From Myxococcota bacterium (GTDB lineage: Bacteria; Myxococcota_A; UBA9042; PHBI01; JACKFB01): a stretch of 64,000 bases of DNA. The stretch covers positions 25,797 to 89,796 of the forward strand of contig JBNJGB010000024.1 of assembly GCA_051747385.1 (NCBI GenBank), given 5' to 3'. A program made the translations under genes and the position numbers. The notes under the pieces were generated by a model, which did no database searches, had not been told where the DNA came from, and saw only the letters and a list, made by a program, of their open reading frames with translations. This document shows, piece after piece, positions 1,173 to 61,718 of the stretch (positions are counted from its first letter, which is position 1; the number at the start of each line of letters is the position of its first letter).

Positions 1173-1176
1173 CTCG

Positions 1177-19030: not shown

Positions 19031-19256
19031 CTCACAGCTCCTCACGTGGCGCGAGACGAAGTGCTCGCGCAAAGACGTGAAGACGCAAAGGAAAACGGCA
19101 CGCTCCGGCCCGGGTCGCTCGCTGCTGGCCTGCCGGTGGCCTGGCAGCCTCGGCCGAACCGGTGTGCGAGCGGTTTGCTGGCCTTCGAGGTTCGGCGGCG
19201 CGGCGCGCGATTGTCCGCGAGATCGCGGTATCCCGAGATGTGCAGGGCTGTGAGCC
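19031..19256 (+). mobile_element. Family B MITE-like element, copy 1
   Basis: About 80% identical over roughly 225 bp to 45052..45275. Ends form a terminal inverted repeat (ctcacag ... ctgtgagcc). Contains a conserved hairpin GCGCGAG-acgaagtg-CTCGCGC. Confidence 0.45.
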
Positions 19257-19373
19257 TCCGGCGAGGGTCCTGCGCCCGGCCGTCCGTGGAATTTCGGGGG
19301 CGTGCGCGTGCTTGTCTACGGGTGAGCCCACAACTATAGTCCGCGCGCCTTCCAGCGCGCAGGAGCCAGGCGA

Positions 19374-31075: not shown

Positions 31076-31200
31076 CGCGAGGCCTCGCGCAACGAATCGC
31101 CTCCAATCCGTCACGAGGAGGAGGGTGGGCGGGGGTGGGCCACCCGCGCCGGCGAGGTCGCCTGGCGACCATCCACACCTCCCCAGCTCCAGAGGGCTCG

Positions 31201-31244
31201 CGCCAAGTCACCAAGCCGCCAAGCCGCCAAGCCGCCAAGCCGCG
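31201..31244. repeat. Octamer tandem repeat (CCAAGCCG), about 4.5 units
   Basis: ccaagtca ccaagccg ccaagccg ccaagccg ccaagccg read directly. A nearby GTCCAC x3 hexamer run sits at 31384..31402. Confidence 0.6.
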
Positions 31245-31492
31245 GATCCCAGCGGGAAGTTGGAGCAGGACCGCCGTCCGCGGCGGTCACTCGCCGCTCC
31301 AACGGCGTCGGCAGCACGACGGGGCCCGGCCCCGAGCCCACTTTCGGTGCGACCAAGACGTCGTGCCCGGTGAGCGCGACCACGTCCACGTCCACGTCCA
31401 CGACCCCGTTTCGCGGCCTCTCGGCGAGTCGTGACCCATCGGCGGGCGACGCCGCCGGCGCTGCGCTGGCCTGTCGTGGTGACGCCGAGAGC

Positions 31493-32307: not shown

Positions 32308-35028
32308 TCACCCCCCGGACGGGAGGGGCTCCCAGCGACACACGAGGCCGGGCTCCGGAGGCTCGCCGCGCCGCTCGAGGATCAGCACGGGATAGTCCCG
32401 CCCGTACTTGAGTCGCGGGTCGCGGAAGACCTTCGCGAGCCTGAACCAACGCCTGGTCGTGGGCAGCTTCCGCATCCGCCGGGGCGTGAAGTAGCTCCGG
32501 GACGTGGACACCAGGAAGCGCACGTCGTCGGCGCAGACCTCGTTCCAGTAGGCCTCCTCGTCCAGGAGCCCGGAGCGGAAGCGCTTGTTGTTGGTGTCCG
32601 CCTCGTCGGCCGCCAGCCGGCGGTCGGAGGCCAGCGCGACGAGCGGCGCCGAGGTGGAGGCGCCGGCGAGGGTCTCGTGAGGCTCGCTGCGCTCCCGGAT
32701 CCACGCGGCGATGTCGGGCAGGGACGAGAACAGCCGCTTCTTGTTCCACAGGTAGTGGCGATAGCCGCGCTCCATGTCGCCCTTGAGCCGGTGATCCCCC
32801 CAGAACAGCGCCCGCACGGGAGCGTCTGCGACCTCCGGCAGCACCGCCGCCTCGGTCCACTCGTAGTCGTTGCGCTGGCCCAGGTCCCGGAACTCGCTCG
32901 GGAAGATGTGGTTGGCCTTCGCGGCCCAGGGCTCCCAGAGGGACAACAGGGCGAACGCGACCGTGGCGGTGGCCAGGCGAGCCGCGCCGAGGCGGTGCTC
33001 CCTGGGACCCGTGACGGCCGTCCAGGCGAGGCGGACGCCACGCTGGAAGACGTAGCCCAGGCAGAGGGCCAGCGCGGGGTAGATGAGGGTGAAGTAGAAG
33101 CTGTACAGCTCGCGGAACATGCTGAACTGGACGAACAGCGCGAGCCCCACGCACCAGACGATGGCCGCCGTGCCGTCCGCGCCGTCGCGCCAGAACCGCC
33201 GCGGATCCACGAACCGCCACAGGGGGCCGGGGCGATCGCGGCGGAGGAGCCAGGAGGCGGCCCCGAGCACCGGGGCCAGAAGTCCGGCCGTCCACAGGTG
33301 CGCGTGATAGTAGACGTCCTTGGTGAAGGGCTTGCCGTCCACCATCACCTTCAGGTTGTGCGTCAGGGCGGCCGGCAGGGATTTTCCGCCGCCCATCAGC
33401 GGGATCATCCGCTGGTCCTGGAACTCCTTCAGGCCGTGATAGCGGTACACGCCGTCCACGAACGCGTCACCCGCGGCCAACAGGAAGACCAGGTTGATGC
33501 CTCCCCACACGGCGACGAAGGCCGCGATCTGGCCCACGGCGAAGCGGCGATCCCGGAACAGGCCCAGGGCGAGGAGGGCGCAGACGGCGGCCATGCTGTA
33601 GAAGCCGGTACACGCGGCGAGGCCGAAGAGCACCCCGGCGGTCCGTCCGCGGCCGGACAGGCTCTGCCACAGGCCCAGCGCGAGCCACATCACGGTGAGG
33701 TTCACGCCGGTCATGTTCGTCGTGGCCTTCAGGGTCTCCGCCGCGAAGAGGAAGGCGACCACGGCGAAGGCCGCCCCGATCCGCCCGAAGCCGCGGCGCC
33801 CGACCGCCCACACGGACAGGCCGGCGATGGCGCCCGCCAGCACGCTGAAGACCTTGGCCAGGGTCAGGGACCAGCCGAAGATCCAGAAGAAGAACGCGGG
33901 CAGCAGGATGTGCAGGGGCGGGTGGGCGAAGAAGAAGTCCACGTACGGCCAGCGGCCGCTCCGCGCCAGGTCGGCGGCCATGTAGAAGTAGATGTTCTCG
34001 TCGGTGTTCGACGGCCCCATGGCGTGGAGCTTGAGCAGGGCGTAGAGGACGAGCACCGCCGCAGGGACGGCCAGGTCCGCGGCGACCCCGACACGCCGGC
34101 GCGGGAGGGCCGGGAGCGGAGCGTCCTCCAGGTCGACCAGGAGGCCCGTGCCCTCGAGGGCGAGGAGAAGCAGCAGGGCAGCGATCAGCAGGCCGCCCGC
34201 CACCTGGCCCGATGCTGCCCCGTCCAGGAGGAGGGGCGCCAGGAGGTGGTGGGCCGCCACCAGCCACGCGCCCACGGCCGCGAGGTGGAGGGCGGGAGGG
34301 TGGCGGGCCCGGGAGCGCTCGGCCTCGTCCCCGCCGCGCCAGGCCACGCGGCCGACGTCCAGCCAGGCGGCCCCCACCGGGAGGAGGCCGAGGACGAGGA
34401 CGGCTCCGGCGAGCAAGTCGACGCCGCGTTCGCGCAGGAGGTCCAGGCCCGTCATGACGGGGACGTGCGCCTCGTTGAGGTGATACCAGGGGACCAGCAG
34501 GACGGCCGTGGCCCACAGCAGCGCCACGGCCCCGACCGCCACGGGGAGGCGCGCCGAGGGGCGCAGCAGGGCTGCCCGGGCGGCGGCGGCGAGCGCCACG
34601 AAGGGCAGGGCGCTCGGGAAGCCCACGAAGTGGCCGTGGGCGTGGGCGAAGGGCGAGAGGTGCCACTCGGGGTGGCGTCCGAACAGCGCCATGGCGCCCA
34701 GCCACGCCGCCAACAGGCCTCCGCCCCGGATGAGGCGCCGCGTCGGACCGTCGAGCCGGGTGGAGACGAGCGCGAGCACCGCGCCGAGGCCGGCCAGGAG
34801 GCGGCCCAGGTCCCACAGGCCCGAAAAGCGCAGGTGGTCCTCGGCCGGGGAGGCCAGGGCGGCCGCCACGAGGACGATCGCGGCGGCCGCGAGGGGCCCG
34901 AACCTCTCCAGGGGCCCGGCGGGGCGCGGCGGTCGTGGTTCCGGCGCCGGTCCAGAGCGGTCCTCGGGCGGGGCGGGCGTTGCCCCTCGGGCCTCCCTGC
35001 GCTCGTGGCGTCGCCTACGCTTCGCCAC
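32308..35028 (-). CDS. Large polytopic membrane protein, glycosyltransferase family 39/ArnT-like (putative)
   Basis: 906 aa with more than 15 predicted TM helices and a soluble C-terminal domain. The central region resembles PMT/ArnT-type lipid-linked sugar transferases (family call is low confidence). Confidence 0.6.
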   Translation of the reverse strand: MAKRRRRHERREARGATPAPPEDRSGPAPEPRPPRPAGPLERFGPLAAAAIVLVAAALASPAEDHLRFSGLWDLGRLLAGLGAVLALVSTRLDGPTRRLIRGGGLLAAWLGAMALFGRHPEWHLSPFAHAHGHFVGFPSALPFVALAAAARAALLRPSARLPVAVGAVALLWATAVLLVPWYHLNEAHVPVMTGLDLLRERGVDLLAGAVLVLGLLPVGAAWLDVGRVAWRGGDEAERSRARHPPALHLAAVGAWLVAAHHLLAPLLLDGAASGQVAGGLLIAALLLLLALEGTGLLVDLEDAPLPALPRRRVGVAADLAVPAAVLVLYALLKLHAMGPSNTDENIYFYMAADLARSGRWPYVDFFFAHPPLHILLPAFFFWIFGWSLTLAKVFSVLAGAIAGLSVWAVGRRGFGRIGAAFAVVAFLFAAETLKATTNMTGVNLTVMWLALGLWQSLSGRGRTAGVLFGLAACTGFYSMAAVCALLALGLFRDRRFAVGQIAAFVAVWGGINLVFLLAAGDAFVDGVYRYHGLKEFQDQRMIPLMGGGKSLPAALTHNLKVMVDGKPFTKDVYYHAHLWTAGLLAPVLGAASWLLRRDRPGPLWRFVDPRRFWRDGADGTAAIVWCVGLALFVQFSMFRELYSFYFTLIYPALALCLGYVFQRGVRLAWTAVTGPREHRLGAARLATATVAFALLSLWEPWAAKANHIFPSEFRDLGQRNDYEWTEAAVLPEVADAPVRALFWGDHRLKGDMERGYRHYLWNKKRLFSSLPDIAAWIRERSEPHETLAGASTSAPLVALASDRRLAADEADTNNKRFRSGLLDEEAYWNEVCADDVRFLVSTSRSYFTPRRMRKLPTTRRWFRLAKVFRDPRLKYGRDYPVLILERRGEPPEPGLVCRWEPLPSGG

Positions 35029-35998
35029 GGAGGATCTCCGCCAGGACGCGGTTCGCCTCGGTGTAGGGGTCCGTGTCCCGCGCGATGAGGCGGTCCAGCA
35101 GGGCGTGCTGATCCTCCCGGGGGCCCAGGGCCTCCGCCATCCGCTCCACCAGGTGGTCGCGGACGATGGTCTCCAGCACGTGGGCGGCCCGGTCCCGGAG
35201 GCGGGCCACCTTCGCCGCGTCGTCCGACGGCCGATCCTGGTGGTCGTGCACCGCCTTCAGGAGGTCCGGGATGCCCTCGCCGCGCACCGCCACGGTGGGC
35301 ACGATGGGCGGGCGCCAGTCCCCCTCGTCCTCCGCCAGGCTCTGCAGGGCCCGGATGTCCCGGATGGTGCGGTCGACGCCCTCGCGGTCGGCCTTGTTGA
35401 TGGCGAAGACGTCGGCGATCTCCAGGATGCCGGCCTTGATGGCCTGGATGTCGTCGCCCAGGCCCGGCACGAGCACGACGACCGAGGTGTGGGCCAGCTT
35501 GACCACCTCCACCTCGTCCTGGCCCACGCCGACGGTCTCGAGGAGGACGACGTCGAAGCCCATGGCGTCGAGGATGGACACGACGTCGGCCGTGGAGCGG
35601 CTCAGCCCGCCCAGGTGTCCCCGCGTCGCCAGGCTGCGGATGAAGACCCCGCGATCCGTGGCGTGGTCCGACATGCGGATCCGGTCGCCCAGGATGGCGC
35701 CGCCGGAGAACGGGCTGGACGGGTCCACCGCCACCACGCCCACCCGGAGGTCCTGGTCCCGGTAGTAGCGGATGATCCGGTCCGTCAGGGTGGACTTCCC
35801 GGAGCCCGGGTTGCCCGTGATCCCCACGATGCGCGCCCGCCCCGTGTGGGGATACAGGCGCTTGAGGATCTCGACGGCCACCGGCTGGCGATCATCCACC
35901 AGGCGCATGGCCCGGCCGGCGGCGCGCTCGTCTCCCTCCAGGATGCGCCCGACGAAGGCGTCGAGGGCCTCGGGATCAGCGGTCACAGGTCGTCGCAT
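35015..35998 (-). CDS. meaB: Methylmalonyl-CoA mutase-associated G-protein chaperone MeaB/ArgK
   Basis: P-loop GNPGSGKST, DxxG and NKAD motifs. The true start, MRRPVTADPE at 35998, lies inside track ORF 35015..36085. Confidence 0.85.
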   Translation of the reverse strand: MRRPVTADPEALDAFVGRILEGDERAAGRAMRLVDDRQPVAVEILKRLYPHTGRARIVGITGNPGSGKSTLTDRIIRYYRDQDLRVGVVAVDPSSPFSGGAILGDRIRMSDHATDRGVFIRSLATRGHLGGLSRSTADVVSILDAMGFDVVLLETVGVGQDEVEVVKLAHTSVVVLVPGLGDDIQAIKAGILEIADVFAINKADREGVDRTIRDIRALQSLAEDEGDWRPPIVPTVAVRGEGIPDLLKAVHDHQDRPSDDAAKVARLRDRAAHVLETIVRDHLVERMAEALGPREDQHALLDRLIARDTDPYTEANRVLAEILRGEA

Positions 35999-38069
35999 GG
36001 CCCTGGGGTCCCTCCCACGTCGCGGAGGCGGAGGACTCGGTCTCGCGCCAGCGCGCACCGGCGGCGCGCCACGCCCGAAGCTCACGACGGAGCAGCGCCT
36101 CCCGGAGGCTCTCCGTGTCGGACGTCTCGGTCCGGGCCCAGCCCTCGTCGCCGCGCGCCAGCCAGCGCGAAGGCTCGTCCCCGCCGGGCTCGAGCAGAGC
36201 GCGCTCGCCCTGGACGACGAGCGCCGCCTCCCGGTGGGCCGAGAAGGCCGGGGTGGGCCACGCCGCGGGGACGATGGCCCGGACGTCCACGCCCTGGACG
36301 CCGTCGGGCGGGTCGACGCCGGCGAGACCCCACACCGTCGCGGCGAGGTCCGTCAGATCCACGGCCGAGTCCGACGCGGGCACCGGCGCGCCGACGACCC
36401 ACGCGGGCACGTGGGCGACCTCCGTGTGCATCGCCACGTCGCCAGGGAGGGCGCCGGCCCCCACACCCGCCACCACGACCACGGCGTCGGGCGCCAGGGT
36501 GCGCGCCTGCTTCACGAAGTCCCCGACGGCCGCCATCACCTCGTCGGCCTTGCCCTTCCGGAGCACCTCGAGGAACGCGCGGTCCCGCTGGTCCAGGGTG
36601 CGCCGTCCGGCGCGGACGTCGGACAGCACCTCGCGCGTGGTGGCGGGGTCCCACGGGGGATCGCCGCGCCCGCCCCAGTGCTCCTTCCAGGCCTCGCCCC
36701 GGGGCAGCCACGGCGGCCCGGTGTCCCCCAGGAGGGCGGCCGCGAAGACCTTGCCGTCCCCGGCCTCGCGCAGAGCGTCGACGAGGCTCGTGAGCACCGG
36801 CGCGGCGTGGGGCAGCAGGTCGCCGCCGGAGGCGAGGAGAGAGTCGTCGAAACCGCGCACCGGCGAGGCCTCGCCACCCAGCGGCACCGGGCCGGCGCGC
36901 AGGATGGTGTCCCACCCGGCGTCGCGGAGGCTCTTGGCCAGGGTCGGAATCTCGTCGTTCAGGCGGTCCGAACGCGCCTGCACGCCGTGGCCCGCCGGAT
37001 ATCGGCCGGTCCACAGCGACGCGACGGCGGGCCGCAGGTCCAGCGCGGAGGTCCACGCGCTGGTCAGCAGCGTCGCGTCCGGCAGGTCGTCCTCGCCGAC
37101 GTCCGTCGCACGGAGCCCTCTCACGCCGACGAGGATGATCTTGTCCGCGGTGGTCTTCGCCGGCGGCGTCTCCGACCGGGTGCCGGGGACGGTGAGGGTG
37201 GGGGCCACGAGGCCCGCGGCGCCGCCTCCCTCCCCCTCGACGCCGAGGCGGAGCCACACCGGCGACCGGCGGCCGCCCCGGGAGAGGTCGAGGTTCCACG
37301 GCATCTGCAGGGCGGCCGGCAGGGCGGCCACGCGGTCGACGGCGCCCTCGGCGCTGATACGCTCCACGACCACGCGGAGCTTCGAGGCGTCGCCGCGAAG
37401 CCGGACGCCGGACGTCTCCAGGGCCTGCTCGGGCTGCAAGGGCGCGGGCATGGTCACCTGCACGCCGCGCTCGAGCCAGAGCACGTCGCCGGCGGCCAGC
37501 GGTCCGGCGGGGGCCTCCCCGGGGGGGGCCGCCTCCGTGTCGAACACCACCGCGTGGAGGAGGGCGCGGACGTCGCGCGGCATCCCGGGACCCTCCGGCG
37601 CTGGGCGCGTGACCTTCGAGAAGGTCATCGTCAGGCGGCGCCGCCCGGCGTCGTCCGGCTTTATCGCCAGGCCTGCGCGCTGCCACCCCTCCTCCAGCGG
37701 GTGGGTGCCGAGCTCGCGGTCTCCGAGGGTCACGGTGAGATCCCGCGGGCCGTGGGCCGGGCGGAGGAGCAGGTCCATGCGCCTGGCGCCGGCGGGGACG
37801 ACGACCTGGAGGACGGCGCGGGGGTGGGTCACCGGTCGATACGACCAGCCCTCCCCGTCGCAGCCGGGCTCGCCGAACGCGTAGGTCCCCTCCGGGCCGG
37901 CGGCGGTGAAGAAGCCCGGCCCTGAGGCGTCGACGCGGCCGGTCCCGTATGCCGCCAGCCGGATCAGGTCGGCGGAGTCCAGGCGCCCGGGGAGGGCGGC
38001 CGTCGCCTCCGGGGCGAGCGCCGCGAAAACCAGGAGGGCCAGCGCGTGACGAGCGAGGATCCGGATCAT
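35976..38069 (-). CDS. Secreted alkaline-phosphatase/sulfatase-superfamily protein with a degenerate active site (pseudo-sulfatase), 698 aa
   Basis: Signal peptide MIRILARHALALLVFAALAPEATAA. The central region aligns to the sulfatase N-terminal domain (ILVGVRG..., SLWTGRYPAGHGV, LAKSLRDAGWDT), but the CxPxR formylglycine motif reads LRPAV. The upstream 185 codons of the track ORF cross a repeat element and are not coding. Confidence 0.55.
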   Translation of the reverse strand: MIRILARHALALLVFAALAPEATAALPGRLDSADLIRLAAYGTGRVDASGPGFFTAAGPEGTYAFGEPGCDGEGWSYRPVTHPRAVLQVVVPAGARRMDLLLRPAHGPRDLTVTLGDRELGTHPLEEGWQRAGLAIKPDDAGRRRLTMTFSKVTRPAPEGPGMPRDVRALLHAVVFDTEAAPPGEAPAGPLAAGDVLWLERGVQVTMPAPLQPEQALETSGVRLRGDASKLRVVVERISAEGAVDRVAALPAALQMPWNLDLSRGGRRSPVWLRLGVEGEGGGAAGLVAPTLTVPGTRSETPPAKTTADKIILVGVRGLRATDVGEDDLPDATLLTSAWTSALDLRPAVASLWTGRYPAGHGVQARSDRLNDEIPTLAKSLRDAGWDTILRAGPVPLGGEASPVRGFDDSLLASGGDLLPHAAPVLTSLVDALREAGDGKVFAAALLGDTGPPWLPRGEAWKEHWGGRGDPPWDPATTREVLSDVRAGRRTLDQRDRAFLEVLRKGKADEVMAAVGDFVKQARTLAPDAVVVVAGVGAGALPGDVAMHTEVAHVPAWVVGAPVPASDSAVDLTDLAATVWGLAGVDPPDGVQGVDVRAIVPAAWPTPAFSAHREAALVVQGERALLEPGGDEPSRWLARGDEGWARTETSDTESLREALLRRELRAWRAAGARWRETESSASATWEGPQGHATTCDR

Positions 38070-38174
38070 GCCAACCGTCCGTAGCCGTGGCCGGTTCCGC
38101 CGTTGTCGGGACGCCCATCCTGGGGCGTGGAACGGAGTGCGGTTAGCACGCGGCTTCGCGCCGTGTAAAGGCAC

Positions 38175-38371
38175 CCGCCGGGTTCGGCCAGGGCGGTCGC
38201 ACAGTCGACCGCCCTCCCTTGCCTTTGCCCTTGCCCTTGCCCTTGCCCTTGCCCTTGCCTGCTTTCGAAGGCGTAGAGTCCATCGTTTCCGGGCGGGTGT
38301 CATGCGGTGCCGGGCGTCGGACCGCCGCGCGACCCTCCCTTGTCCGACTTTGCGATTGCCCCGCGGGTTCC
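38175..38371 (+). mobile_element. Family A MITE-like element, copy 2 (core 38190..38361)
   Basis: Same hairpin; seven CCCTTG hexamers (copy 1 has five); the CCATCGTTTCCGGGCGGGTG box; the GCGATTGCCC end. Flanked by direct repeats cccgccgggttc and cgcgggttcc. Confidence 0.5.
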
Positions 38372-38424
38372 CCTGGGCGGCGCGACGTTGACGCCCGGGG
38401 GGCGAGGCGCCAGCATCCACGCTC

Positions 38425-38913
38425 ATGAAGCGATCATCCGTGTTGTTCGTGTGTCTGGGAAACATCTGTCGCTCGCCCCTCGCCGAGGGGGTCTTCCGCG
38501 ACGAGGTCGCACGCCGCGGGGTGGAGGGCCTCGTCCGCGTGGACTCCTGCGGTACCGGGGGCTGGCACGTGGGGGAGGCGCCCGACCCGCGGAGCGTCGA
38601 GGTGGCGCAGCGGCACGGCCTGGACATCAGCCACCAGCGGGCCCGGCAGCTTCGCGGCGAGGACTTCTACGAGTTCGTCTGGATGATCCCCATGGACCGG
38701 TCCAACGAGCGGGTGCTCGCGGCGTCCCGGCCGGACGACCACGACGGCCTCGTCCGGCGGTACACGACCTTCGTGCCGGGCCGCGCCCCGGAGGACGTCC
38801 CGGACCCGTACTACGGCGGCCCCCGGGGCTTCGACGACGTGTTCGACCTCATCCGGCGCGGGGCAGGCCCCCTGCTGGACGAGATCCTGGCGGACCTCGA
38901 GGCGCGCCGATGA
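38425..38913 (+). CDS. Low-molecular-weight protein-tyrosine phosphatase
   Basis: P-loop CLGNICRSP at the N-terminus and a DPYY loop; 162 aa. Confidence 0.9.
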   Translation: MKRSSVLFVCLGNICRSPLAEGVFRDEVARRGVEGLVRVDSCGTGGWHVGEAPDPRSVEVAQRHGLDISHQRARQLRGEDFYEFVWMIPMDRSNERVLAASRPDDHDGLVRRYTTFVPGRAPEDVPDPYYGGPRGFDDVFDLIRRGAGPLLDEILADLEARR

Positions 38914-39767
38914 ACCTCCCGGGCACGGTGGAGGACCTGATCCGCGACGCCACCGGCCACCCGCCCAAGGCCGTCCGCCCGGTCGGCGGGGGCTGCATCA
39001 ACCAGGCGGCGCGCGTGGAGACGGACGGCGGGGCCGTCTTCGTGAAGTGGAACCCGGGCTCGCCTCCGGGCTTCTTCGGGGCCGAGGCCGACGGACTGGA
39101 GCGCCTGGCCGCCACACGGACCGTGCGCGTTCCCGGGGTCCGGGCCGTCGACGACGAACGGCGCGTGGGCGCCATCGTGATGGACTGGGTGCCGGACGGA
39201 CGCGATCGCTCGGCGGCGATGGAGGACGCCGGGCGCAGGCTCGCCGAGCTGCACGCCCGGAGGGGCCGTCCGCCCGGCCTGGAGCGGGACAACTTCATCG
39301 GCTCCATCCCGCAGCGGAACACGCCCCCGCCGGACGGCCGCTGGCTCACGTTCTTCCGGGAGCAGCGCGTCCACGCCCTCGCAGGCGCCCTCCCGGCGCG
39401 GGTCCGGCGGGACCTGGAGGCGCTGGACCTCGAGGGCCTCCTGACGGAGCCGGAGGGTGGCTGCGCGCTGCTCCACGGCGACCTGTGGGGCGGCAACGTC
39501 ATGGTGGGCGAGGGCGGCGCCGGCTGGATCGTCGATCCCGCCGTCTACCACGGCCACCCGGAGGTCGACCTGGCCATGACCCGCCTGTTCGGCGGGTTCG
39601 GCCCGCGGTTCTACGACGCCTACCAGGAGGTGGCGGGGCCGTTCGACGCGGATCTGGACGCTCGCCTGGAGGTGCTGAACCTCTACCCCCTGCTGGTGCA
39701 CGTGCACCTGTTCGGCGGCGCCTACCTGGGCCAGGTGGAGGCGGTGGTCCGCCGCTTCGCACGCTAG
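38910..39767 (+). CDS. Fructosamine/ribulosamine-3-kinase family protein (FN3K homologue)
   Basis: Kinase-like fold with LLHGDLWGGN and PAVYHGHPEVDLAM. The ATG at 38910 overlaps the phosphatase stop as ATGA. Confidence 0.85.
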   Translation: MNLPGTVEDLIRDATGHPPKAVRPVGGGCINQAARVETDGGAVFVKWNPGSPPGFFGAEADGLERLAATRTVRVPGVRAVDDERRVGAIVMDWVPDGRDRSAAMEDAGRRLAELHARRGRPPGLERDNFIGSIPQRNTPPPDGRWLTFFREQRVHALAGALPARVRRDLEALDLEGLLTEPEGGCALLHGDLWGGNVMVGEGGAGWIVDPAVYHGHPEVDLAMTRLFGGFGPRFYDAYQEVAGPFDADLDARLEVLNLYPLLVHVHLFGGAYLGQVEAVVRRFAR

Positions 39768-39867
39768 CCTCGCTTCGCACGCTAGCGTCGCGGGCCGGGC
39801 GGTTTTCTGGACGGATCGGCGGGCGGGCGCCACCTTCGAGGCGAACGAAGCACGGAGGACGCGCCCC

Positions 39868-40206
39868 ATGGTCGCCATCTGGTTCGATCCCTCGACCGCC
39901 GCCACCGATCGCCTCACCGCCAGCGTCACCGTCGGCTCCGCCGCCGAGACGACGCGGACCCTCGACGTGGGCGTGCGCTCCATCGGGCGCCGAGGCGTCG
40001 TGCTGAAGACCGCCGGCGACCTGGGCGGCGCCCGCCACGCGTGGATGGATCTCGCGCTGCCCGGCGGACGCAGCATCCGGCCCCTCGTCGAGATCGGCCG
40101 GTCGGACCAGGGGCACACCCCCGTGCGCTTCAAGCACCTCTTCCCGCGGGATCGCGAGGCCCTCGAGGCCTTCCACCTCTCCCGGGCGACGACCTCGGGC
40201 TACTGA
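39868..40206 (+). CDS. Small hypothetical protein, possibly PilZ-like
   Basis: 112 aa. A C-terminal VRFKHLFPRDREALEAF segment resembles the PilZ-domain C-terminus. Weak call. Confidence 0.3.
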   Translation: MVAIWFDPSTAATDRLTASVTVGSAAETTRTLDVGVRSIGRRGVVLKTAGDLGGARHAWMDLALPGGRSIRPLVEIGRSDQGHTPVRFKHLFPRDREALEAFHLSRATTSGY

Positions 40207-40213
40207 ACACCGT

Positions 40214-40999
40214 TCAGGAGCTGATCGGCCCCTCGGCGTCGCGCTCCGGCCGGGTCGGAAAGGCGTGGACCGTCGCCGGGATCCGGTCGGCGAGCGGCGC
40301 CAGCAGATCCGGGATCTCGTGCCACCGGTAGATCTGGCTGAAGTGGCTCAGGACGAGGTGGTCGCACACGAGGCGGTCGGCGCGCTCCAGCAGGTCCCGC
40401 AGGTGGACGTGCCCGCCCGCGCGGCAGTCGTCGTAGTCCTTCCGGTCGTCGAGGAACGTGCACTCGATGAGGAGGGTCGCGGCGTCGGCGACGTGGGGGC
40501 TCCGCTCGAGCACCTCGGGCAGGGTGTCCCCGGTCACCGACAGGAGGCGGCGCTCGACGGGGGCGGTCACCTCCACGCCCGACTTGCGCAGCCGGGCGAT
40601 CTCCGGGCCCGGCACCCCGTGGTACTCGGCCTTCAGCTTGTCCACCGTGTGGATCACGCTGTAGCCGAGCGACGGCACCGGGTGATAGGTCCGGAAGGGG
40701 ACCAGCTCGAGGCCGCGGCGCAGGGGATAGCGCGCGCCGGGCTCGGCGGCGACGAGGTGATAGCGGCTCTCGAAGCGCTGGATGCGATCCCAGGCGGCGA
40801 TGAGCTCCCGGACGGCGTCGGCCATCTGGGCGGGCACGTACACCGTGGGCGGCGCCATCCTGTAGAGCTGGCGCAGCGCCAGGAGATACGGCAGGCCGGC
40901 GGCGTGGTCCATGTGCGTGTGGGTCAGGGCGAGGTGATCGCAGCGCAGGGCGTCGCGGTGGCCGCGGCCCACGTCGATGGCCAGCTTCCACTCCGGCAC
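40214..40999 (-). CDS. Metallo-beta-lactamase-fold hydrolase (RNase Z-like family); N-terminus probably extends to about 41075
   Basis: HxHxDH motif THTHMDHAAG and a downstream conserved Asp/His. The given start is the first canonical GTG. The conserved N-terminal strand (EIREFSLRGFSLGG) lies upstream in-frame with no ATG, GTG or TTG. Confidence 0.6.
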   Translation of the reverse strand: MPEWKLAIDVGRGHRDALRCDHLALTHTHMDHAAGLPYLLALRQLYRMAPPTVYVPAQMADAVRELIAAWDRIQRFESRYHLVAAEPGARYPLRRGLELVPFRTYHPVPSLGYSVIHTVDKLKAEYHGVPGPEIARLRKSGVEVTAPVERRLLSVTGDTLPEVLERSPHVADAATLLIECTFLDDRKDYDDCRAGGHVHLRDLLERADRLVCDHLVLSHFSQIYRWHEIPDLLAPLADRIPATVHAFPTRPERDAEGPISS

Positions 41000-41173
41000 G
41001 ACGACGCAGGTCTCGACGCCGCCGAGGGAGAAGCCTCGCAGGCTGAATTCGCGGATTTCGGCACCCCCCGGACCCGTCGGTGGAACGTCGCCCCGGCGCG
41101 GCGCGGAGCGTCTTGTGGGCGTCGTGCGGCCCGTGGTACAAAGCGCCGGACCTCGCGCGAGGAGGATCGTCGC

Positions 41174-41746
41174 ATGCACACGCCCGTACGTCGATGGGTA
41201 CGCCTCTCCCCCTCCGCCCGGTGGGGAGCGGCGCTCGCGGCCGTGGTCGCCCTCGCGTTCGGCCTCGTCGCGTGCAAGGAGGAGCTGGATCCCGAGGTCG
41301 TCGGCCGCGGCCTGCCGGACACGGGCAGCACGGGCACCCCGACGCCCGAGATGGCGCAGCGGTGCAAGCTCGACGAGAAGGTGGACGCCCCCGAGGAGGG
41401 CACCCCCGAGCGCGTGGTGGCTCGAGTGCTCGGGGCTGCGAAGGCCGCCGGAGACGAGGACGACGAGGCAGAGTTCCAGCGCTTCTTCGGCCAGTTCGCC
41501 GAGGGACAGGACGAGAGCTGGGCCCGGTCGCAGTACTGGAAGGCCGCCCGCAAGCACGCGGACCTGTTCGTCTACGGCGGGGGCGGCGACGAGCCGGTCA
41601 CCTACGTGATCTGCCGCCGCCAGGAAAAGGACGGCGGGGTGACGCTCTACCTCGGCTCCAAGGACACGCAGAAGAAGTCCCACGTGCCCATCACCCTGGA
41701 GAAGCAGGAGGACGGGGCGTGGAAGGTGACGAAGTTCAGCCCCTGA
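41174..41746 (+). CDS. Hypothetical lipoprotein, 190 aa
   Basis: Strong GGAGGA Shine-Dalgarno 7 nt upstream of the ATG. Lipobox AAVVALAFGLVAC. It forms the C-terminal part of spurious track ORF 40265..41746. Confidence 0.7.
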   Translation: MHTPVRRWVRLSPSARWGAALAAVVALAFGLVACKEELDPEVVGRGLPDTGSTGTPTPEMAQRCKLDEKVDAPEEGTPERVVARVLGAAKAAGDEDDEAEFQRFFGQFAEGQDESWARSQYWKAARKHADLFVYGGGGDEPVTYVICRRQEKDGGVTLYLGSKDTQKKSHVPITLEKQEDGAWKVTKFSP

Positions 41747-41803
41747 GCGGCCCGCGCGGGCGCGCGGCGCGACGCGTGGTGTGACACGAGAGAGGCGAGG
41801 CGC

Positions 41804-43540
41804 ATGAAGACGTGGATGCCAGCCGCAGGCGCGGCGCTGCTCATGGTCCTGGTCGCCGGGTGTGACACCGGTCGGGAGACGGCCCCGAGCACCATGGAGG
41901 TGCACGCCCTGAGCGGCGGGTCGTGCGCCGAGGGCGCGTCCATCGACCCGCTCCAGGACCTCGAGGAGGTGGAGGTGAGCCTCAGCCGCTTCGACCCGGA
42001 GGCGGAGGAGGGCGACGGGTTCGAGGTCATCCGCTCCGTCAGCCGGAGCGTCTCGGACATGAGCTTCACCCTGTCGGGCGTCCCGGAGACCACCGGGGTG
42101 GGGCATCGGATCGTGCTCTCCGGCGAGGGGCAGCAGGCCCGGTGGTACGCCGCGGACATGGACGTCACGGTCCGACGGAACACGGACAACCCCGTGGACC
42201 TGCTCCTGACGCGATTCGGAGGCTTCTCGTGCGTCCCGACGGACACGAGCCTGGTCAACGCGGTCTTCCCGGCCGCCGCGGAGCTGGGGGATGGCCGGCT
42301 GTTCATCAGCGGCGGATTCACGCAGCTCCTGAGCGATCGCCAGGGTGGAACCTACCTGGGCGCCCCGAGCAGCCAGGCGTTCATCTTCGACCCGACCACG
42401 GGTCTGGTGGACGAGGTCATCGACATGGGCGAAGGAGAGGGCCGCGCCGGCCACGCCGTCGAGTTCATCCCGTCGCCCACCGGCGAGGACCGGGGCAAGG
42501 TCCTCATCCTCGGGGGCATGACGCGGCTCGGCGTGGACTCGGGCGCCGGCTTCCCGTTCACCTTCGACAAGGAGGACGGGCGGCGGGACTTCCTGCTGTA
42601 CGACCTGTCCACGTCGTCGTTCGTGGAGGGCACCGACGACGCCATGCAGGTGAAGCGTGGCTTCCCGCGCACGCACCTCATGGCGGACGGCACCGTCGTC
42701 GTCACCGGCGGTGGCCAGTGGCCCCAGGAGGCGTCGACCGACTACCAGGAGGTCGAGGTCTTCGACCCGCAGCAGCAGGCGGGGGCGTGGTTCGTTCCCG
42801 GCACGGCGGGCTTCATCAGCGACTGGCCCCGGACCGGACACAGCCTCAGCTTCCTGGGCAACACGCCCGAGCAGGGCCTGACGCAGCTCCTCGTCTGGGG
42901 CGGTACGACGCCGCCGGGGCAGCGGAAGGGCACCGACTCGGTGGCCGAGATCATGACCCAGTCCTCGCAGCAGGTGGAGGGGATCGACGGCTCGTTCTCG
43001 CCCGTCACCGTCCAGGTCCAGAACCCGGATGACGGCGTGCCGTTCACCTTCTTCCACGAGATGACCCCGCTCGGCGAGCAGGACTTCCTCCTGACGGGCG
43101 GCGTGCGGGCCCAGTGCGCAGGCCAGGGTCAGGACTGCACGCTCCGGGCGCCGGCGGCGGACGAGGCCTGGCACGTCCACATCCAGACCGGCGGCGACGA
43201 CCCGGTGGCTCAGGTCCGCAAGGTGCCGGGCATGGGCGCCGGTCGCGTCTTCCACTCGGCGCACCTCAGCGCCCCGGGGGGCGTCGCGGTGGTCGGTGGC
43301 CTGGCGGGCACGAATGCGGTCCAGACCGACAAGATCATGCTGTTCGACGAGGCCGACTCCTCCTGGGCGGCCGATCCGGCCGGCGGCGACCGGTTCGAGG
43401 GGCGTGGCGCGCATCTCGGGGTCACGCTGGGCTCGCGGGCCGCGCTGCTCGTCGGCGGCGAGACCAACCTCACCGACCTGGACGGCAACACCGGCGCCTT
43501 CGTCGAGGTGTTCGCGCCGTCCAATCTCCACACTCCCTAG
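41804..43540 (+). CDS. Kelch-repeat (galactose-oxidase-like beta-propeller) lipoprotein, 578 aa
   Basis: Lipobox LLMVLVAGC. Repeated Kelch signatures GRLFISGG, KVLILGG, TVVVTGG, LLVWGG, FLLTGG, VAVVGG, ALLVGG. Confidence 0.75.
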   Translation: MKTWMPAAGAALLMVLVAGCDTGRETAPSTMEVHALSGGSCAEGASIDPLQDLEEVEVSLSRFDPEAEEGDGFEVIRSVSRSVSDMSFTLSGVPETTGVGHRIVLSGEGQQARWYAADMDVTVRRNTDNPVDLLLTRFGGFSCVPTDTSLVNAVFPAAAELGDGRLFISGGFTQLLSDRQGGTYLGAPSSQAFIFDPTTGLVDEVIDMGEGEGRAGHAVEFIPSPTGEDRGKVLILGGMTRLGVDSGAGFPFTFDKEDGRRDFLLYDLSTSSFVEGTDDAMQVKRGFPRTHLMADGTVVVTGGGQWPQEASTDYQEVEVFDPQQQAGAWFVPGTAGFISDWPRTGHSLSFLGNTPEQGLTQLLVWGGTTPPGQRKGTDSVAEIMTQSSQQVEGIDGSFSPVTVQVQNPDDGVPFTFFHEMTPLGEQDFLLTGGVRAQCAGQGQDCTLRAPAADEAWHVHIQTGGDDPVAQVRKVPGMGAGRVFHSAHLSAPGGVAVVGGLAGTNAVQTDKIMLFDEADSSWAADPAGGDRFEGRGAHLGVTLGSRAALLVGGETNLTDLDGNTGAFVEVFAPSNLHTP

Positions 43541-43603: not shown

Positions 43604-44995
43604 ATGCTCCACCCGCGGGGGAAGACGTACCGCACCCTGGCCGTCCTGACGGCCGTGGGCGTGTTCAACCTCGAGATGGTCGCGCTGATGCACGGCCGGC
43701 TCACGCTGCCGACGGCCCGGGCGCAGGCCCAGCCGGAGGCCCCGGCCCGAGCGGCCGCGGAGGAGCGCCGCGTCGCCCTCATCGTGTTCCCGAGGCGGAG
43801 CGCCGACGAGGGGGACGCCCAGGTCCTTCAGACGCTGATGCGCCAGGAGGTCGAGCGGTTGAAGGACGTGAGCGTCGTCACCGGCTCGCCCGATCCCGCC
43901 GAGGACGCGCAGTCCGTGGCGGCCGACCTCGTGGAGGCGGGCTTCCGGGCGCTGAACGTGCGGGATCACGTGGAGGCCGAGGCGAGGCTCTCGGAGGCCT
44001 ACGAGAAGCTCATCCGTCACACGGGTCCGCTGGACCGTCGCCTGATGGCGCGGGCCCTCAAGGGGCTCGGCGTGGCCCGGGTGATGGCCGGCCAGATGCG
44101 CGCCGGCAAGGACATGATGCGCGCGTCCCTGAACCTGTGGCCCGAGCAGATCCCTCCAGAGTACGGCTACACGCTCGACGTGCTGAACGCCTTCAAGGAC
44201 GTCCAGCGCCAGCGGACCGAGCAGGCCAGCGGCTCCGTCGACGTGGTCACCGAGCCTGCGGGGGCCGAGGTGCGCATCGACGGCGAGGTCCGGGGATACT
44301 CTCCGGTGAGCGTGCCCGACCTGGCCCCGGGGATGCACTGGGTTCAGGCCCAGCTCGACGGGTACGTCCGCCAGGGCTCCCTCGTGGAGGTGCCCTCCGG
44401 CGAGGCGGAGCAGGTGCGGTACTCGCTCCAGGCCCGCCAGGATCACGACGCCTACAGCGACGTCATGGGCGACGTGCAGCGGCGCTTCGGTTCCCGGCGC
44501 GTGGTCGGGCGGGCCAACCCGAAGCTGATCGACATGCTCCGAGCGGACGACGTCCTCCTGGTGCAGGTGGACCCGCGGGGCAACGGCTATCGCCTGACGG
44601 CGTGGCACGGTGACGCCGAGGGCGTCGAGCAGGCGAAGAAGACGATCCAGCGTGACGCCGACTTCCTGTCGAACATCCAGTCCTTCCTCACCGCCACCCT
44701 GGGCGCCGAGCTGGGCGCCGAGGAGGCCGCCCTGCGGCTGGACGCGCCGCCCAAGAGCAGCGTGCTGGCCACGGGCGAGGAGGAGGAGGACCTCTACATC
44801 GACCCGGACGACCCCATCCTCAAGAGCCCCGAGGAGGAGGAGGAGGAGAGCGTCACGAGCAAGTGGTGGTTCTGGGCCATCGTGGGCGGGGTCGCCGCGG
44901 GCGCCGTTGCTGGCGGCGTGGTCCTGTTCTCCGGCACCGACGCTGGTTCCGGCCCCACCGGCGACATCACCGTCGACCTCCACGGGCTCCAGTAG
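43604..44995 (+). CDS. PEGA-domain protein with a C-terminal TM anchor
   Basis: Signal-like N-terminus; PEGA domain (VDVVTEPAGAEVRIDGEVRGYSPVSVPDLAPGMHWVQAQLDGY); acidic stretch; TM helix WWFWAIVGGVAAGAVAGGVVLF. Confidence 0.65.
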   Translation: MLHPRGKTYRTLAVLTAVGVFNLEMVALMHGRLTLPTARAQAQPEAPARAAAEERRVALIVFPRRSADEGDAQVLQTLMRQEVERLKDVSVVTGSPDPAEDAQSVAADLVEAGFRALNVRDHVEAEARLSEAYEKLIRHTGPLDRRLMARALKGLGVARVMAGQMRAGKDMMRASLNLWPEQIPPEYGYTLDVLNAFKDVQRQRTEQASGSVDVVTEPAGAEVRIDGEVRGYSPVSVPDLAPGMHWVQAQLDGYVRQGSLVEVPSGEAEQVRYSLQARQDHDAYSDVMGDVQRRFGSRRVVGRANPKLIDMLRADDVLLVQVDPRGNGYRLTAWHGDAEGVEQAKKTIQRDADFLSNIQSFLTATLGAELGAEEAALRLDAPPKSSVLATGEEEEDLYIDPDDPILKSPEEEEEESVTSKWWFWAIVGGVAAGAVAGGVVLFSGTDAGSGPTGDITVDLHGLQ

Positions 44996-45041
44996 AACCG
45001 CCGTCCCCGGCGCCCCGAGCCGGCAAGCTGCAGTAGGATCG

Positions 45042-45285
45042 CCGTCCCCGGCTCACAGTTCGTCAGATGTCGCGAGACGAAGGGCTCGCGCAAAGACGCG
45101 AAGCCGCAAAGAAGGACGGCATGCTTCGGCTCGGTGTGCTCGCTCTCGGCCTGCCGGTGACGCGGCGGTCTCGGACGAACCGGTGTGCAACCGGTTCGCT
45201 GGCCTTGGGGTCCTGGCGGCTTGGCGCGCGATTCTCTTCGAGGCCCCGGCATTTCGAGTTGTGTAGGCCTGTGAGCCGTCCCCGG
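45042..45285 (+). mobile_element. Family B MITE-like element, copy 2 (core 45052..45275) with a perfect 10-bp target-site duplication
   Basis: Terminal inverted repeat ctcacag ... ctgtgag. The core is flanked immediately on both sides by CCGTCCCCGG (45042..45051 and 45276..45285). It lies in a convergent intergenic region. Confidence 0.5.
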
Positions 45286-45288
45286 CGG

Positions 45289-48200
45289 TCAGTAGATCAG
45301 CTCGAAGCCGGCCGCCGCCGTCGACTCCGTGTGGGCCTCGCCGTCCGTGCCCTCCGGGAGGGACTGGTTGGCCAGGTAGGCGCCGGTGGCGCTGGTGATG
45401 CGGACCACGACGCCCACGCTCCGCGTCTCTCCGGCGGCCGCGTCGTAGAGCAGGGACAGCGGGATCGCCGCCTCGACGGCCTCGTCCCCGGCGTAGACGG
45501 CGCCGTCGATGAGCCAGGGCAGGTCGGCGGGGAGCGACAGGCCGCGCCAGCCGGCTCCCACGGCCGCGGGGTCGTCCACGGCGGGCACGTAGCTGTCCAT
45601 GTCGAGGGTCGCGAAGCCCACCTCCGCGCCGTACCCGGCCTGGGTCACGCGCAGGACGCTCGCGACGGCGTCGTCGACTGCGTGGTCGCCGTCCGTGAGC
45701 GCTGACAGGTCCGTGACGCCGCTGCCGGCGCCGAGGTCGGTGTCCACGTACGCGACGAGGGCGTTGCCGTCGTGGGCCTTCCCCTCCACGGCGAGGTACA
45801 TGAGCTCGCCGTCGCTCGCCGCGTGGAGAGCCGAGAGCGTGTTCCCCGTGCCCCAGTCGCTGGCGATCGTGTTCGTGGCGAGGAGCGTGGCGCCGGTCCA
45901 CTCGTCCAGGGTGCCGTCCATCGTGGGGCGATAGCCCAGGCGGGTGGTCGCGGTGCCCTCGTCGCAGGCGACGACCACCTCCGCCTCGCCGGGCGCGTGG
46001 GGCGGCGCCGTGAACTGCAGGGGACCGGGAGCGTCCCCCCAGGTGGTGGTCGCCGCGATCCCGTCGACGGTGACGCCGCACGAGCCGTCGAGCCCGGCGC
46101 CCGCGACGGCGACGGTCGTTCCTCCGCCGTGGGTGACCGAGCGTGGCTCCAGCGCGGTGACCCCGACAGCTCCCTCCAGGATCTCCACCGTGGAGAGGTC
46201 GGCGGGAGAGAAGCCGTCCACGGCGCCGGTGCGGTCCACGTAGAGCCAGGAAGAGCCGCCGGTGACCGAGAAGCGCATCGTCGCGGCCCAAGTGCCCGGG
46301 GGCGGCTCCACCGCGCCGGTCCAGACGTCGTTGTGGCCCTCCTCGTGGCTGTAGGCGGCGTCGGTCCAGGTCCAGCCCTCGTCAGAGCGGGGATCCGAGC
46401 CCGCGGGGCCGTAGCCGGCCTGGGCCGTGATCCCGAAGCCGGCGCCGTCCCCCTCCGTCACGCCTGGTTCATAGACCTGCGCGGAGAGCACGGGGCCCGG
46501 CTCTCCCTCGGAGGCGGTGAGCTCCTCGGCGACGTCCAGGCGTCCCCAGTCGGGGAGATCGGGCTCGTACGTGAAGGCATCCGGCGCGACGACGCTCTGA
46601 CCGTCGGGATTGTCCACCGCGACGTCGACGGTGCCGATGGGGGCCGGGGGCGTGACCGCGGAGATCGATCCGCTCCCGTCGGCCACCTCCACGTCGGAGG
46701 CGCTGAGCGAACCGAAGCGCACGGCGGCCCCCGCGGCGAAGTTGGCCCCTGTGACGGTCACGGTCGTTCCCCCACCGGTGGGGCCCGAGGCGGGCGTGAC
46801 CTCGTCGATGCTCGGAGCGTTCGCCACCTCCACGAAGGCGTAGCCGCCCGGATAGGTGGCGGAGCCTCCGTCCGGCGCGGTGATCGTCACGTCCACGGTC
46901 CCCGCCGCGTGCGCGGGGGTGATCACTTCGGCGGAGGCGGTCTCGACGGTCTGGACCGTGGCCTCCTCTCCTCCGAAGCGCACGGTGACGCCCTCGACGA
47001 AGCCGCTCCCGGACAGGGTCACCGGGGTCCCGCCGGTCGCGCTCCCGTGATCGGGCGCGATCAGCAACAGCTCGATGGGCGCCGTCTCCGGGACGCAGGC
47101 GCCGTCCTGGCAGACCTCGCCGTCGCCGGTGCAGGGCGCCTGGGGGCCGCACTCCGGTACACAGACACCGTCCTGGCAGACCTCGCCCGCGTCGCACGGG
47201 TCGTCCTCGTCGCACTCGGGCCCGGTGTCGGGCACACACGTACCGTCCTCGCAGATCCCACCGCCGGGGCACGGGTCGTCCTCGTCGCACTCGGGCCCCG
47301 TGTCGGGCACACACGTACCGTCCTCGCAGATCTCACCGCCGGGGCACGGGTTGTCCGCGGCGCACTCGGGCCCCGTGTCGACCACGCAGGCGCCACCCCG
47401 GCAGACCTCGTCCCGTCCCGTGCAGGGCGTGTCGGGGCCGCACTCGGGGGCAGGGTCGTCGGGACAGACGACCACCGCGGTGTTCATCTCGACGCCCTTG
47501 CTGTCCATGGACTGGACCACGTCGTGCGGCTGCCAGCCGCCCGCGCACTCGGCCTCCGCGGACACGCCCCGGGGCGTCGCGTCCCCGTCGACCTTGTACT
47601 CCTGGGCCACGTCCGGGTCCGCGTCCCCCTTGGCGAACACGAAGACGAACTGCGCCTCCTGCCCGGCCTGGAGCAGCCCGTCGTGCGGCCCGAGGTACAG
47701 GGAGTGCTGGTAGGTGAGCACGCCGTCCCCCGCCTGAGCGTCGCCGCGCGCCCCGTCGTCCAGGAGCTGGATCGGCGTCCACGAGTTCATGGTGCCCTTG
47801 ATGAACACACGGTGGCTCTCGAGGGTGACGGCGCCGACCCAGTCCTCGTGCAGGCCCTCCAGGTCGAGGAAGACCTCGAGGTCCCGATCCCCGTGGGCGG
47901 GGACGGTCATCCCCGGGACGTCGACGCGACCCGTGGTGCCGGCCGGTACCTCGAGCTGCCCGTTGGAGCCGCGCCAGATCCACCGCAGATCGGCGTTGAG
48001 GAGGCCGTACGAGAGCAGCCGATCCTGCTCGGCCCGGTAGCAGGCCACCACGCTCCAGACGTGGTCCCCGGCCACCTCGCCCTCGGGCTCGTGTCCGCCC
48101 GCGCTGACGGGCCCGTCGTCGAACAGCGGCGGATAGGGGCCCTCCTCCGGGAGCCAGCTCGAGGCGAACTCCAGCGTGTTCGTCGCCTCGTCCCAGGAGA

Positions 48201-48474
48201 AGGAGCCGGTCCAGATGAGCTCGCCCTCGCCGTAGGTCCGGTTCGCGGTGTCGTCCACGGCGAACGCGAGCGCGGCGTGGTCGTCGGGGCAGGGGTTCGT
48301 GGCGGGGTTGGCGGTCGCGTCCTCCGTGCTGCCGCCATCCATGGCGTCCCCGGAGGTTGCGTCGGGGCTCGTGTCGGCGGGGAGGGGCCCGGTGTCTTCG
48401 CCGTCGGGCCCGTCACATCCGGCGGCGATGGCCAGGGCGATCGTCGCCGCGAGAGTCCAGGTGCGCACCGTCAT
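45289..48474 (-). CDS. Giant secreted lipoprotein with myxo-type Cys-rich tandem repeats and three IPT/TIG-like domains (adhesin-like), 1061 aa
   Basis: Lipobox TIALAIAAGC. Five tandem units of DTGPEC..DxPC.GGEIC.DGxCVP (nucleotide-level repeats 47100..47420). IPT-like GGTPVTLSGSGF, GGTTVTVTGANF and GGGTTVAVAGAGL. Confidence 0.8.
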   Translation of the reverse strand: MTVRTWTLAATIALAIAAGCDGPDGEDTGPLPADTSPDATSGDAMDGGSTEDATANPATNPCPDDHAALAFAVDDTANRTYGEGELIWTGSFSWDEATNTLEFASSWLPEEGPYPPLFDDGPVSAGGHEPEGEVAGDHVWSVVACYRAEQDRLLSYGLLNADLRWIWRGSNGQLEVPAGTTGRVDVPGMTVPAHGDRDLEVFLDLEGLHEDWVGAVTLESHRVFIKGTMNSWTPIQLLDDGARGDAQAGDGVLTYQHSLYLGPHDGLLQAGQEAQFVFVFAKGDADPDVAQEYKVDGDATPRGVSAEAECAGGWQPHDVVQSMDSKGVEMNTAVVVCPDDPAPECGPDTPCTGRDEVCRGGACVVDTGPECAADNPCPGGEICEDGTCVPDTGPECDEDDPCPGGGICEDGTCVPDTGPECDEDDPCDAGEVCQDGVCVPECGPQAPCTGDGEVCQDGACVPETAPIELLLIAPDHGSATGGTPVTLSGSGFVEGVTVRFGGEEATVQTVETASAEVITPAHAAGTVDVTITAPDGGSATYPGGYAFVEVANAPSIDEVTPASGPTGGGTTVTVTGANFAAGAAVRFGSLSASDVEVADGSGSISAVTPPAPIGTVDVAVDNPDGQSVVAPDAFTYEPDLPDWGRLDVAEELTASEGEPGPVLSAQVYEPGVTEGDGAGFGITAQAGYGPAGSDPRSDEGWTWTDAAYSHEEGHNDVWTGAVEPPPGTWAATMRFSVTGGSSWLYVDRTGAVDGFSPADLSTVEILEGAVGVTALEPRSVTHGGGTTVAVAGAGLDGSCGVTVDGIAATTTWGDAPGPLQFTAPPHAPGEAEVVVACDEGTATTRLGYRPTMDGTLDEWTGATLLATNTIASDWGTGNTLSALHAASDGELMYLAVEGKAHDGNALVAYVDTDLGAGSGVTDLSALTDGDHAVDDAVASVLRVTQAGYGAEVGFATLDMDSYVPAVDDPAAVGAGWRGLSLPADLPWLIDGAVYAGDEAVEAAIPLSLLYDAAAGETRSVGVVVRITSATGAYLANQSLPEGTDGEAHTESTAAAGFELIY

Positions 48475-61633: not shown

Positions 61634-61718
61634 GAGCGTCGTCCTCGGCGGCGCCCCACGAGAGACAGTCGGGGCGGCGGCGCCGCCGGCGATGGATGCT
61701 CCTCGCCGCCAAGCCGCG

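Follow-up and report, generated by a model that had tools for sequence, protein, structure and literature searches.

A probable MITE of 224 bp flanked by direct repeats at two intergenic sites of an uncultured Myxococcota genome

Introduction

Prokaryotic MITEs, among them Correia/NEMIS, RUP, ERIC and QMITE, are non-autonomous elements shorter than 500 bp that carry terminal inverted repeats of about 4-30 bp and flanking direct repeats, have no coding capacity, lie between genes, are able to fold back on themselves and are typically, though not obligatorily, AT-rich in composition and in targets (PMC10969869). A GTAG-tagged REP consists of a tag and a stem-loop with a stem of 6-9 bp; the tag may be degenerate (GYAG/GTMG), REPs can donate stop codons (PMC3733652), and insertion sequences are documented to target them (PMC3733652 and its reference 12). 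In other repeat families, REPs have also been reported inside genes, uvrA being a notable case (PMC3733652). REPINs are formed by two inverted REPs and move without making target duplications. Among insertion sequences, the IS4 family (IS231 with its MIC231 cassettes; IS10) makes target duplications of 9-12 bp and prefers short symmetric GC-containing targets, the target being GGG-N5-CCC for IS231A and NGCTNAGCN for IS10; where a duplication measures 10-12 bp and has a short GC palindrome at its centre, IS4-family transposases such as IS231 are its most typical source.

In this work we describe a pair of related intergenic segments, here called Family B, in a 64,000-nucleotide stretch of Myxococcota DNA that was analysed as a whole (the window; G+C content 72.3%). 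The size, inverted repeats and direct repeats of Family B fit the definition of a prokaryotic MITE (PMC10969869), and like the described MITEs it is shorter than 500 bp, has inverted repeats in the 4-30-bp range and direct repeats, contains no ORF, is intergenic and is able to fold back. It differs from them in being GC-rich and inserted in GC-rich targets where MITEs are typically AT-rich (PMC10969869), in having been seen in two copies, and in its 10-bp duplication, which is long for a bacterial MITE. The hairpins that it appears to have targeted share with GTAG-tagged REPs the tag, the GC stems, the position after genes in convergent regions and the donated stop codons; they differ in that only about five occur in the 64 kb and that no RAYT gene was seen there. 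With its length of 224 bp and its flanking duplications, Family B itself is not a REP.

Results

The two copies of Family B occupy 19031-19254 (copy 1) and 45052-45275 (copy 2) on the plus strand of the window. An ungapped comparison of the colinear pair finds 175 of 224 positions identical (78.1%) with no indels, close to the value of about 80% given in an earlier, sequence-only reading of this DNA; the 49 substitutions comprise 30 transitions and 19 transversions. The same pair is found by BLAST within the window (E about 5e-51) and is returned by a repeat search of the window (pair D1, 255 nt at 76%), and an nhmmer profile built from both copies scores copy 2 at E 8e-74. Both copies begin with CTCACAG (45052-45058 in copy 2, 19031-19037 in copy 1) and end with its reverse complement CTGTGAG (45269-45275 and 19248-19254), and in both the boundary of homology coincides with these inverted termini; within the window, CTGTGAGCC is present at the ends of Family B only. 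The ends are those that had been described, while the length is 224 bp in both copies rather than about 225 bp, below the 500-bp bound of the MITE definition (PMC10969869), and the 'cc' formerly appended to the right end is the start of the flanking repeat. At 7 bp the inverted repeat is short for the range of about 4-30 bp into which it falls, and an inverted repeat longer than 7-8 bp was rejected as the ends match at background level further inward.

The interior of the element runs from 8-nt units on the 5' side, through a unique core of about 90 nt, to degenerate units in inverted orientation. Its best-conserved stretch is a 5' hairpin followed by three units, GCGCAAAG-ACGCGAAG-CCGCAAAG (45070-45111 in copy 2, 19049-19090 in copy 1), where the copies are 90-95% identical in 20-nt windows. 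Special conservation of this stretch may be a matter of chance: by a rough estimate for at most 3 differences in 41 nt, it is not significant once several windows are allowed for. A hairpin with a 7-bp stem had been proposed at this position for both copies; it is present in copy 1 (GCGCGAG/CTCGCGC), and the stem in copy 2 has only 6 bp (TCGCGAG). The degenerate inverted units are CTTGGGGT-CCTGGCGG-CTTGGCGC-GCGA (45204-45231 in copy 2, 19183-19210 in copy 1), and when copy 2 is folded to minimum energy they pair with the units on the 5' side. A central hairpin, CGAACCGG-TGTGCA-CCGGTTCG, lies at 45176-45198 in copy 2 and in a weaker form at 19155-19177 in copy 1. The element itself bears GTAGG/GCAGG at its 3' end, so that some of what is counted as right flank could be element sequence.

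Copy 2 lies between two convergent genes, a PEGA-domain gene (43604-44995, plus strand) and a TIG-domain gene (45289-48474, minus strand), and copy 1 between a divergent pair, a ribbon-helix-helix (RHH) gene (18749-18943, minus strand) and an S1-domain gene (19374-21035, plus strand) whose product is identical to accession MGM0577315.1. The gene map, which is a rough one drawn from third-position G+C content and family searches, thereby agrees with the settings first assigned to the copies, a convergent intergenic region for copy 2 and a divergent region upstream of the S1-domain gene for copy 1. The differences between the copies are distributed evenly over codon phases (18/15/16), and their six-frame translations are unrelated or contain stops; for these reasons Family B can be ruled out as a coding ORF, and the embedded ORFs of about 97 codons, already doubted as genes, are indeed not coding. 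As in MITEs, there is no coding capacity. Elsewhere in the window, the TIG/IPT-domain gene beside copy 2 contains a tandem 75-bp repeat (47140-47405; three copies, 72-84% identical) that probably encodes repeated cysteine-rich modules, and 32308-43540 holds five consecutive large ORFs of 440-906 aa with high third-position G+C content, for which no Pfam or NCBIfam match was found at the thresholds used.

Direct repeats abut both copies. Copy 2 stands between two identical 10-mers, CCGTCCCCGG, at 45042-45051 and 45276-45285 (10/10), which is the perfect duplication reported from the sequence alone, and copy 1 too is flanked by a repeat, CCAACGGCGA at 19021-19030 and CCTCCGGCGA at 19255-19264, that matches at 8/10. 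By an empirical estimate over the whole window, the chance of a 10-mer match at the spacing of the copies is 4.7e-5 for 10/10 and 4.5e-3 for at least 8/10. The repeats differ between copies, the flanking 10-mers of copy 1 agreeing with those of copy 2 at only 5/10, and such unlike repeats fit two independent target duplications, not one duplicated segment. A one-off segmental duplication, or a gene conversion of an intergenic segment, that involved no mobility would account for the fact that only two copies are known and for some similarity extending about 15 nt past each end (the 255-nt D1 pair). However, it would not lead one to expect flanking 10-mers more alike within a copy than between copies, similarity beyond these 10-mers that is near background (40-45%), or flanks of copy 2 that recreate a known hairpin when rejoined, and it is to our mind the least probable of the explanations weighed here. 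Two separate insertions are the better account, because a single insertion copied together with its flanks would have left the repeats about 78% identical between copies. The insertions appear to be old, since the copy 1 repeat has decayed (2/10) to about the extent that the elements have diverged (22%). In both targets the duplication has GGAnCG on its left side and GGTC on its right, and because the adjoining bases are ambiguous the duplication could be 10-12 bp long. One further occurrence of CCGTCCCCGG, at 45001, lies 41 nt upstream of the copy 2 repeat within a second hairpin, and the 12-mer GCCGTCCCCGGC is also found at 45000; with a third copy of the 10-mer so near, local repetition of hairpins could mimic a duplication.

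With the element and one repeat removed, the flanks of copy 2 join to give AGGATCGCCGTCCCCGGCGGTCA, which matches an intact hairpin at 31267-31289 at 21 of 23 positions across the junction (E 0.002 within the window), and further hairpins at 44990-45012 (21/23) and 61629-61651 (20/23). The rejoined empty site at 45042-45285 would read GTAGGATCGCCGTCCCCGG directly into CGGTCAGTAG. The hairpin that copy 2 splits has its left half at 45033-45051 and its right half at 45276-45291 (plus strand), and a second, intact GTAG-tagged hairpin on the same strand lies at 44992-45012, its TAG being the stop codon of the gene at 43604-44995. Read most simply, two REP-like hairpins stand here in tandem and copy 2 occupies the loop of the second. 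Copy 1 has as its target GGAGCGCC-AAC-GGCGAGGGTC, which looks like a weak form of this hairpin, and these two cases would suggest a shared preference for hairpin targets.

The GTAG-tagged REP-like hairpins of the window (44992-45012; 45033-45051 with 45276-45291; 31263-31289; 61629-61653) are small and GC, for example GACCGCCG-TCCG-CGGCGGTC, and are preceded by GTAG (44992, 45033 and 61630), GCAG (31265) or GTCG (minus strand, near 10190). Their stems of 5-8 bp, combined with the tag, give them the tag and stem-loop of REPs. Hairpins of this type sit just 3' of genes in convergent regions, and in two cases the upstream ORF takes its TAG stop codon from the hairpin (44993-44995 and 61631-61633). 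They number about five in the 64 kb. An abundant family is not supported, the pattern at 3 mismatches giving 34 matches against 29 expected, which is not above chance, and the meaningful matches are only the 4-5 close ones. Family searches of the 64 kb brought up no RAYT gene among the ORFs of the window.

These surroundings bear on the main rival to a MITE, in which Family B would be an intergenic element of REP/REPIN or mosaic type. Either a single-strand HUH (RAYT-like) transposase or recombination among hairpin repeats would have spread it, and the flanking 10-mers would be parts of neighbouring REP hairpins and not duplicated target. Such an origin would be in keeping with the position of the element among GTAG-tagged hairpins, with the third copy of the 10-mer 41 nt upstream, with inner arms that are inverted arrays of 8-nt units and in this respect resemble a REP dimer, with GTAGG/GCAGG at the 3' end, and with the recurrence of the octamer module together with REP units at 31193-31289, 61575-61653 and 10165-10252. 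Nevertheless, we consider it unlikely. REPINs make no target duplications, whereas the repeats of Family B are alike within copies and not between them; the homology ends at the inverted termini in both copies; and no Y1/HUH transposase was detected among the ORFs of the window. With its abutting 10-bp duplications, Family B does not match a pair of inverted REPs that moves without target duplication.

The conserved 5' part of the element is made of 8-nt NCGCNAAG units (45088-45111 in copy 2 and 19067-19090 in copy 1, where one base is changed in the middle unit). Dimers of the unit occur eight times at four loci of the window against 0.01 expected. With copy 1 there are five module sites, four of which lie downstream of a co-oriented gene or tRNA. 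A GTAG-type hairpin follows about 25 nt after three of the module sites. The resulting composite units, at 31193-31289 (plus strand), 61575-61653 (plus strand) and 10165-10252 (minus strand), stand after genes or tRNAs and share one order, from CTCGCGC through 3-6 octamer units and GCGGA...GGGAAG.TGGAG to a GC hairpin tagged with GTAG, GCAG or GTCG. A MazG-like ORF takes its final 20 or so codons, together with its stop codon, from the composite unit at 61575. Two adjacent tRNA genes at 10336-10498 (minus strand) are the only Rfam matches in the window, and an octamer-plus-hairpin unit follows them on their strand.

The module extends well beyond this genome. Among GTDB species representatives, the 20-mer GCTCGCGCAAAGACGNGAAG has 35 matches in 34 loci from very different phyla, of which about 19 are clearly the same object, namely a run of NCGCNAAG units with, as a rule, an imperfect inverted run 10-130 nt further on that has GCGCGAG at its end, often in the form GCTCGCGCAAAGACGCGAAG(G/A)CGCAAAG and then an inverted copy; the remaining matches lie in coding DNA and look like chance. 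Module-bearing loci (L003, L005, L009, L013, L017, L018, L020-L023, L025, L027-L030, L032 and L033) come from at least seven phyla, about eight in all, including Verrucomicrobia, Planctomycetes, Chloroflexi, Bacteroidetes, Acidobacteria, Binatia and Proteobacteria. On one Methylacidiphilum contig (L023), foldbacks at 6776-6862 and 7300-7403 flank a gene for a 127-aa GxxExxY protein (TIGR04256, E 8e-41) in the manner of a small cassette. On another (L027), a module near 3600-3660 lies in frame within a UvrA-family ORF (522-6278, minus strand), where it inserts 17 residues that have no counterpart in the solved UvrA structure PDB 3pih. Similarly, about a dozen modules occupy one reading frame of an MmeI/Eco57I-type methylase gene in Candidatus Viridilinea (L021, 2100-5700, minus strand), and one module lies in frame in an FtsX/MacB-type permease ORF (L003, 940-6357, minus strand).

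In these other phyla the 8-nt module therefore resembles Rickettsia palindromic elements and intragenic REPs (PMC3733652) in lying in frame inside genes. It differs from them in being built of NCGCNAAG units with no clear GTAG or CGTC tag, and the modules of the window differ further in being intergenic or at the ends of ORFs, outside conserved domains. No Rfam family was found for the 8-nt-unit foldbacks, and a literature search by sequence strings returned no paper on the module. It is possible, and we put it forward tentatively, that the 5' hairpin and NCGCNAAG units of Family B belong to an undescribed family of foldback repeats that is derived from one 8-nt unit and present in many phyla. 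Each of the two arms of the module is closer to the unit consensus than to the other arm, which would point to a conserved sequence-specific partner and not to simple selection for a hairpin; such a partner would be a protein or a mobilising enzyme.

We compared the region of copy 1 with its counterpart in relatives. The best S1 homologues beyond the identical record are only 59-64% identical, and a true empty-site test lacks a close relative. Three metagenomic relatives with S1 proteins 58-64% identical (L040, L042 and L044) have their genes in the order LepA-epimerase-RHH<->S1, except that L040 is without the epimerase gene and its RHH gene adjoins LepA. Their RHH-S1 spacers measure 154 nt in L040 (counted from a start codon that was reassigned to fit the protein alignment), 219 nt in L042 and 226 nt in L044, against 430 nt in the window, where subtraction of the element and one repeat leaves 196 nt. 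Neither Family B nor runs of 8-nt units occur in the RHH-S1 spacers of these three relatives. This is an absence at the orthologous site of copy 1 only, and in distant relatives; it is the opposite of what the sequence-only reading had named as a sign of an ancient local duplication, the same sequence at the same position in relatives. Copy 1 lies upstream of a promoter-like site of the S1-domain gene, TTGTCT-17-TATAGT (19312-19340), whose counterpart in L040 is TTGTTT-17-TATACT (about 10073-10101; S1 protein identity 58%). In the alignment of the window with the L040 spacer, one large gap covers the element and the promoter-like site downstream of it is conserved; copy 1 therefore appears to have been added in this lineage, upstream of the S1 promoter, and not to be a conserved leader. 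A TGTCAAT(G/C)ACGGGCG-like motif beside the RHH gene (about 18995-19010 in the window) recurs in L044.

This comparison also bears on whether Family B might be a structured small RNA or cis-regulatory RNA in two paralogous copies. In favour of an RNA, the RNAalifold consensus has 65 pairs, of which 11 survive by way of G-U changes and 2 show compensatory change, a terminal 7-bp helix and two hairpins are conserved, and transitions exceed transversions (30 vs 19). Set against these features, the single-sequence folds are ordinary relative to shuffled controls (z-scores -0.77 and -0.22), as is the consensus fold relative to column-shuffled alignments (z -0.38 on the plus and -0.14 on the minus strand, two sequences giving this test no statistical power); the contexts of the two copies, a divergent promoter region and a convergent gene end, are unrelated; in three relatives the orthologous S1 leader region has no such element, yet the S1 promoter is conserved; and the flanking direct repeats are left unexplained. 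A known RNA family is ruled out by Rfam, which gives no match to Family B at gathering score in the window and only noise at E up to 10 over 44950-45350, so the conserved cis-regulatory RNA family that had been raised as a possible outcome was not seen. We regard an RNA origin as very unlikely.

No third copy of Family B, full or partial, was found in the window by BLAST or with the nhmmer profile, and the profile yielded nothing new as regards further copies. Beyond the window, the 20-mer scan of GTDB species representatives, among whose matches the source genome does not appear, returned only the generic 8-nt module in other phyla; a two-block core pattern searched in JGI metagenomes returned 5 contigs that share only the pattern itself; and BLAST against plasmids returned none. 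The copy number is thus two in 64 kb and none in the collections searched. Family searches identified no transposase family among the approximately 40 ORFs called in the window, no insertion sequence with Family B ends was identified, and a literature search for myxobacterial MITEs found nothing relevant. The window also contains a second repeat family, Family A (15666-15832 and 38189-38367; 82-97% identical). Its ends CAGGGCGGTCGCAAAGTCG and CGACTTTGCGATTGCCCTG are inverted repeats of about 19 bp, imperfect and with TCGCAAAG within them, and it further shows a hairpin on the 5' side, a run of CTTGCC hexamers of variable length and similar short flanks (AGGGGCCG; GGGTTC).

Discussion

On balance we favour, as the probable though by no means certain explanation, that Family B is a 224-bp non-autonomous DNA transposon (MITE) with 7-bp terminal inverted repeats and no coding capacity. 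The MITE-like character first proposed from the sequence is supported by the hallmarks named above, by duplications at both copies, by the hairpin that is rebuilt when copy 2 is removed, and by the element-free spacers of relatives. The points against it are that there are two copies only, that the inverted repeat has just 7 bp, and that no partner transposase was found in the window. Furthermore, both element and targets are GC-rich, in contrast to the AT-richness that is typical, without being obligatory, for MITEs.

If Family B is a MITE, a transposase encoded elsewhere in the genome would have recognised its ends and cut a small GC-rich palindrome, GCCG-N4-CGGC, about its loop with a stagger of 10 bp (possibly 10-12 bp), and gap repair would then have duplicated the target. 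A duplication of 10-12 bp centred on GCCG-N4-CGGC is a likeness to the IS4 family, and the assignment of the putative transposase to that family is offered as a lead only. At 22% divergence the copies would be old and are probably inactive now. Their interior may be regarded as a long imperfect foldback with arms made of 8-nt NCGCNAAG units, and this module could represent sub-terminal protein-binding sites or a REP-like passenger.

Seen in this way, Family B is largely routine, likely an old MITE in an uncultured Myxococcota lineage that is useful mainly for annotation. A MITE explains a 97-codon ORF that is not a gene, the 234 bp by which the S1 spacer exceeds its expected length, and the disruption of a hairpin at the end of a gene. 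In addition, the apparent insertion into the loop of GTAG-tagged REP-like hairpins, accompanied by a 10-bp duplication, would represent REP targeting outside the Proteobacteria. The 8-nt module is a more novel lead than the MITE itself. If the tentative foldback-repeat family is real, Family B would be a transposon with a captured module of this kind, or one built around it, and if the module does form a coherent family, it would raise the question of why genomes so distant retain one and the same 8-nt unit.
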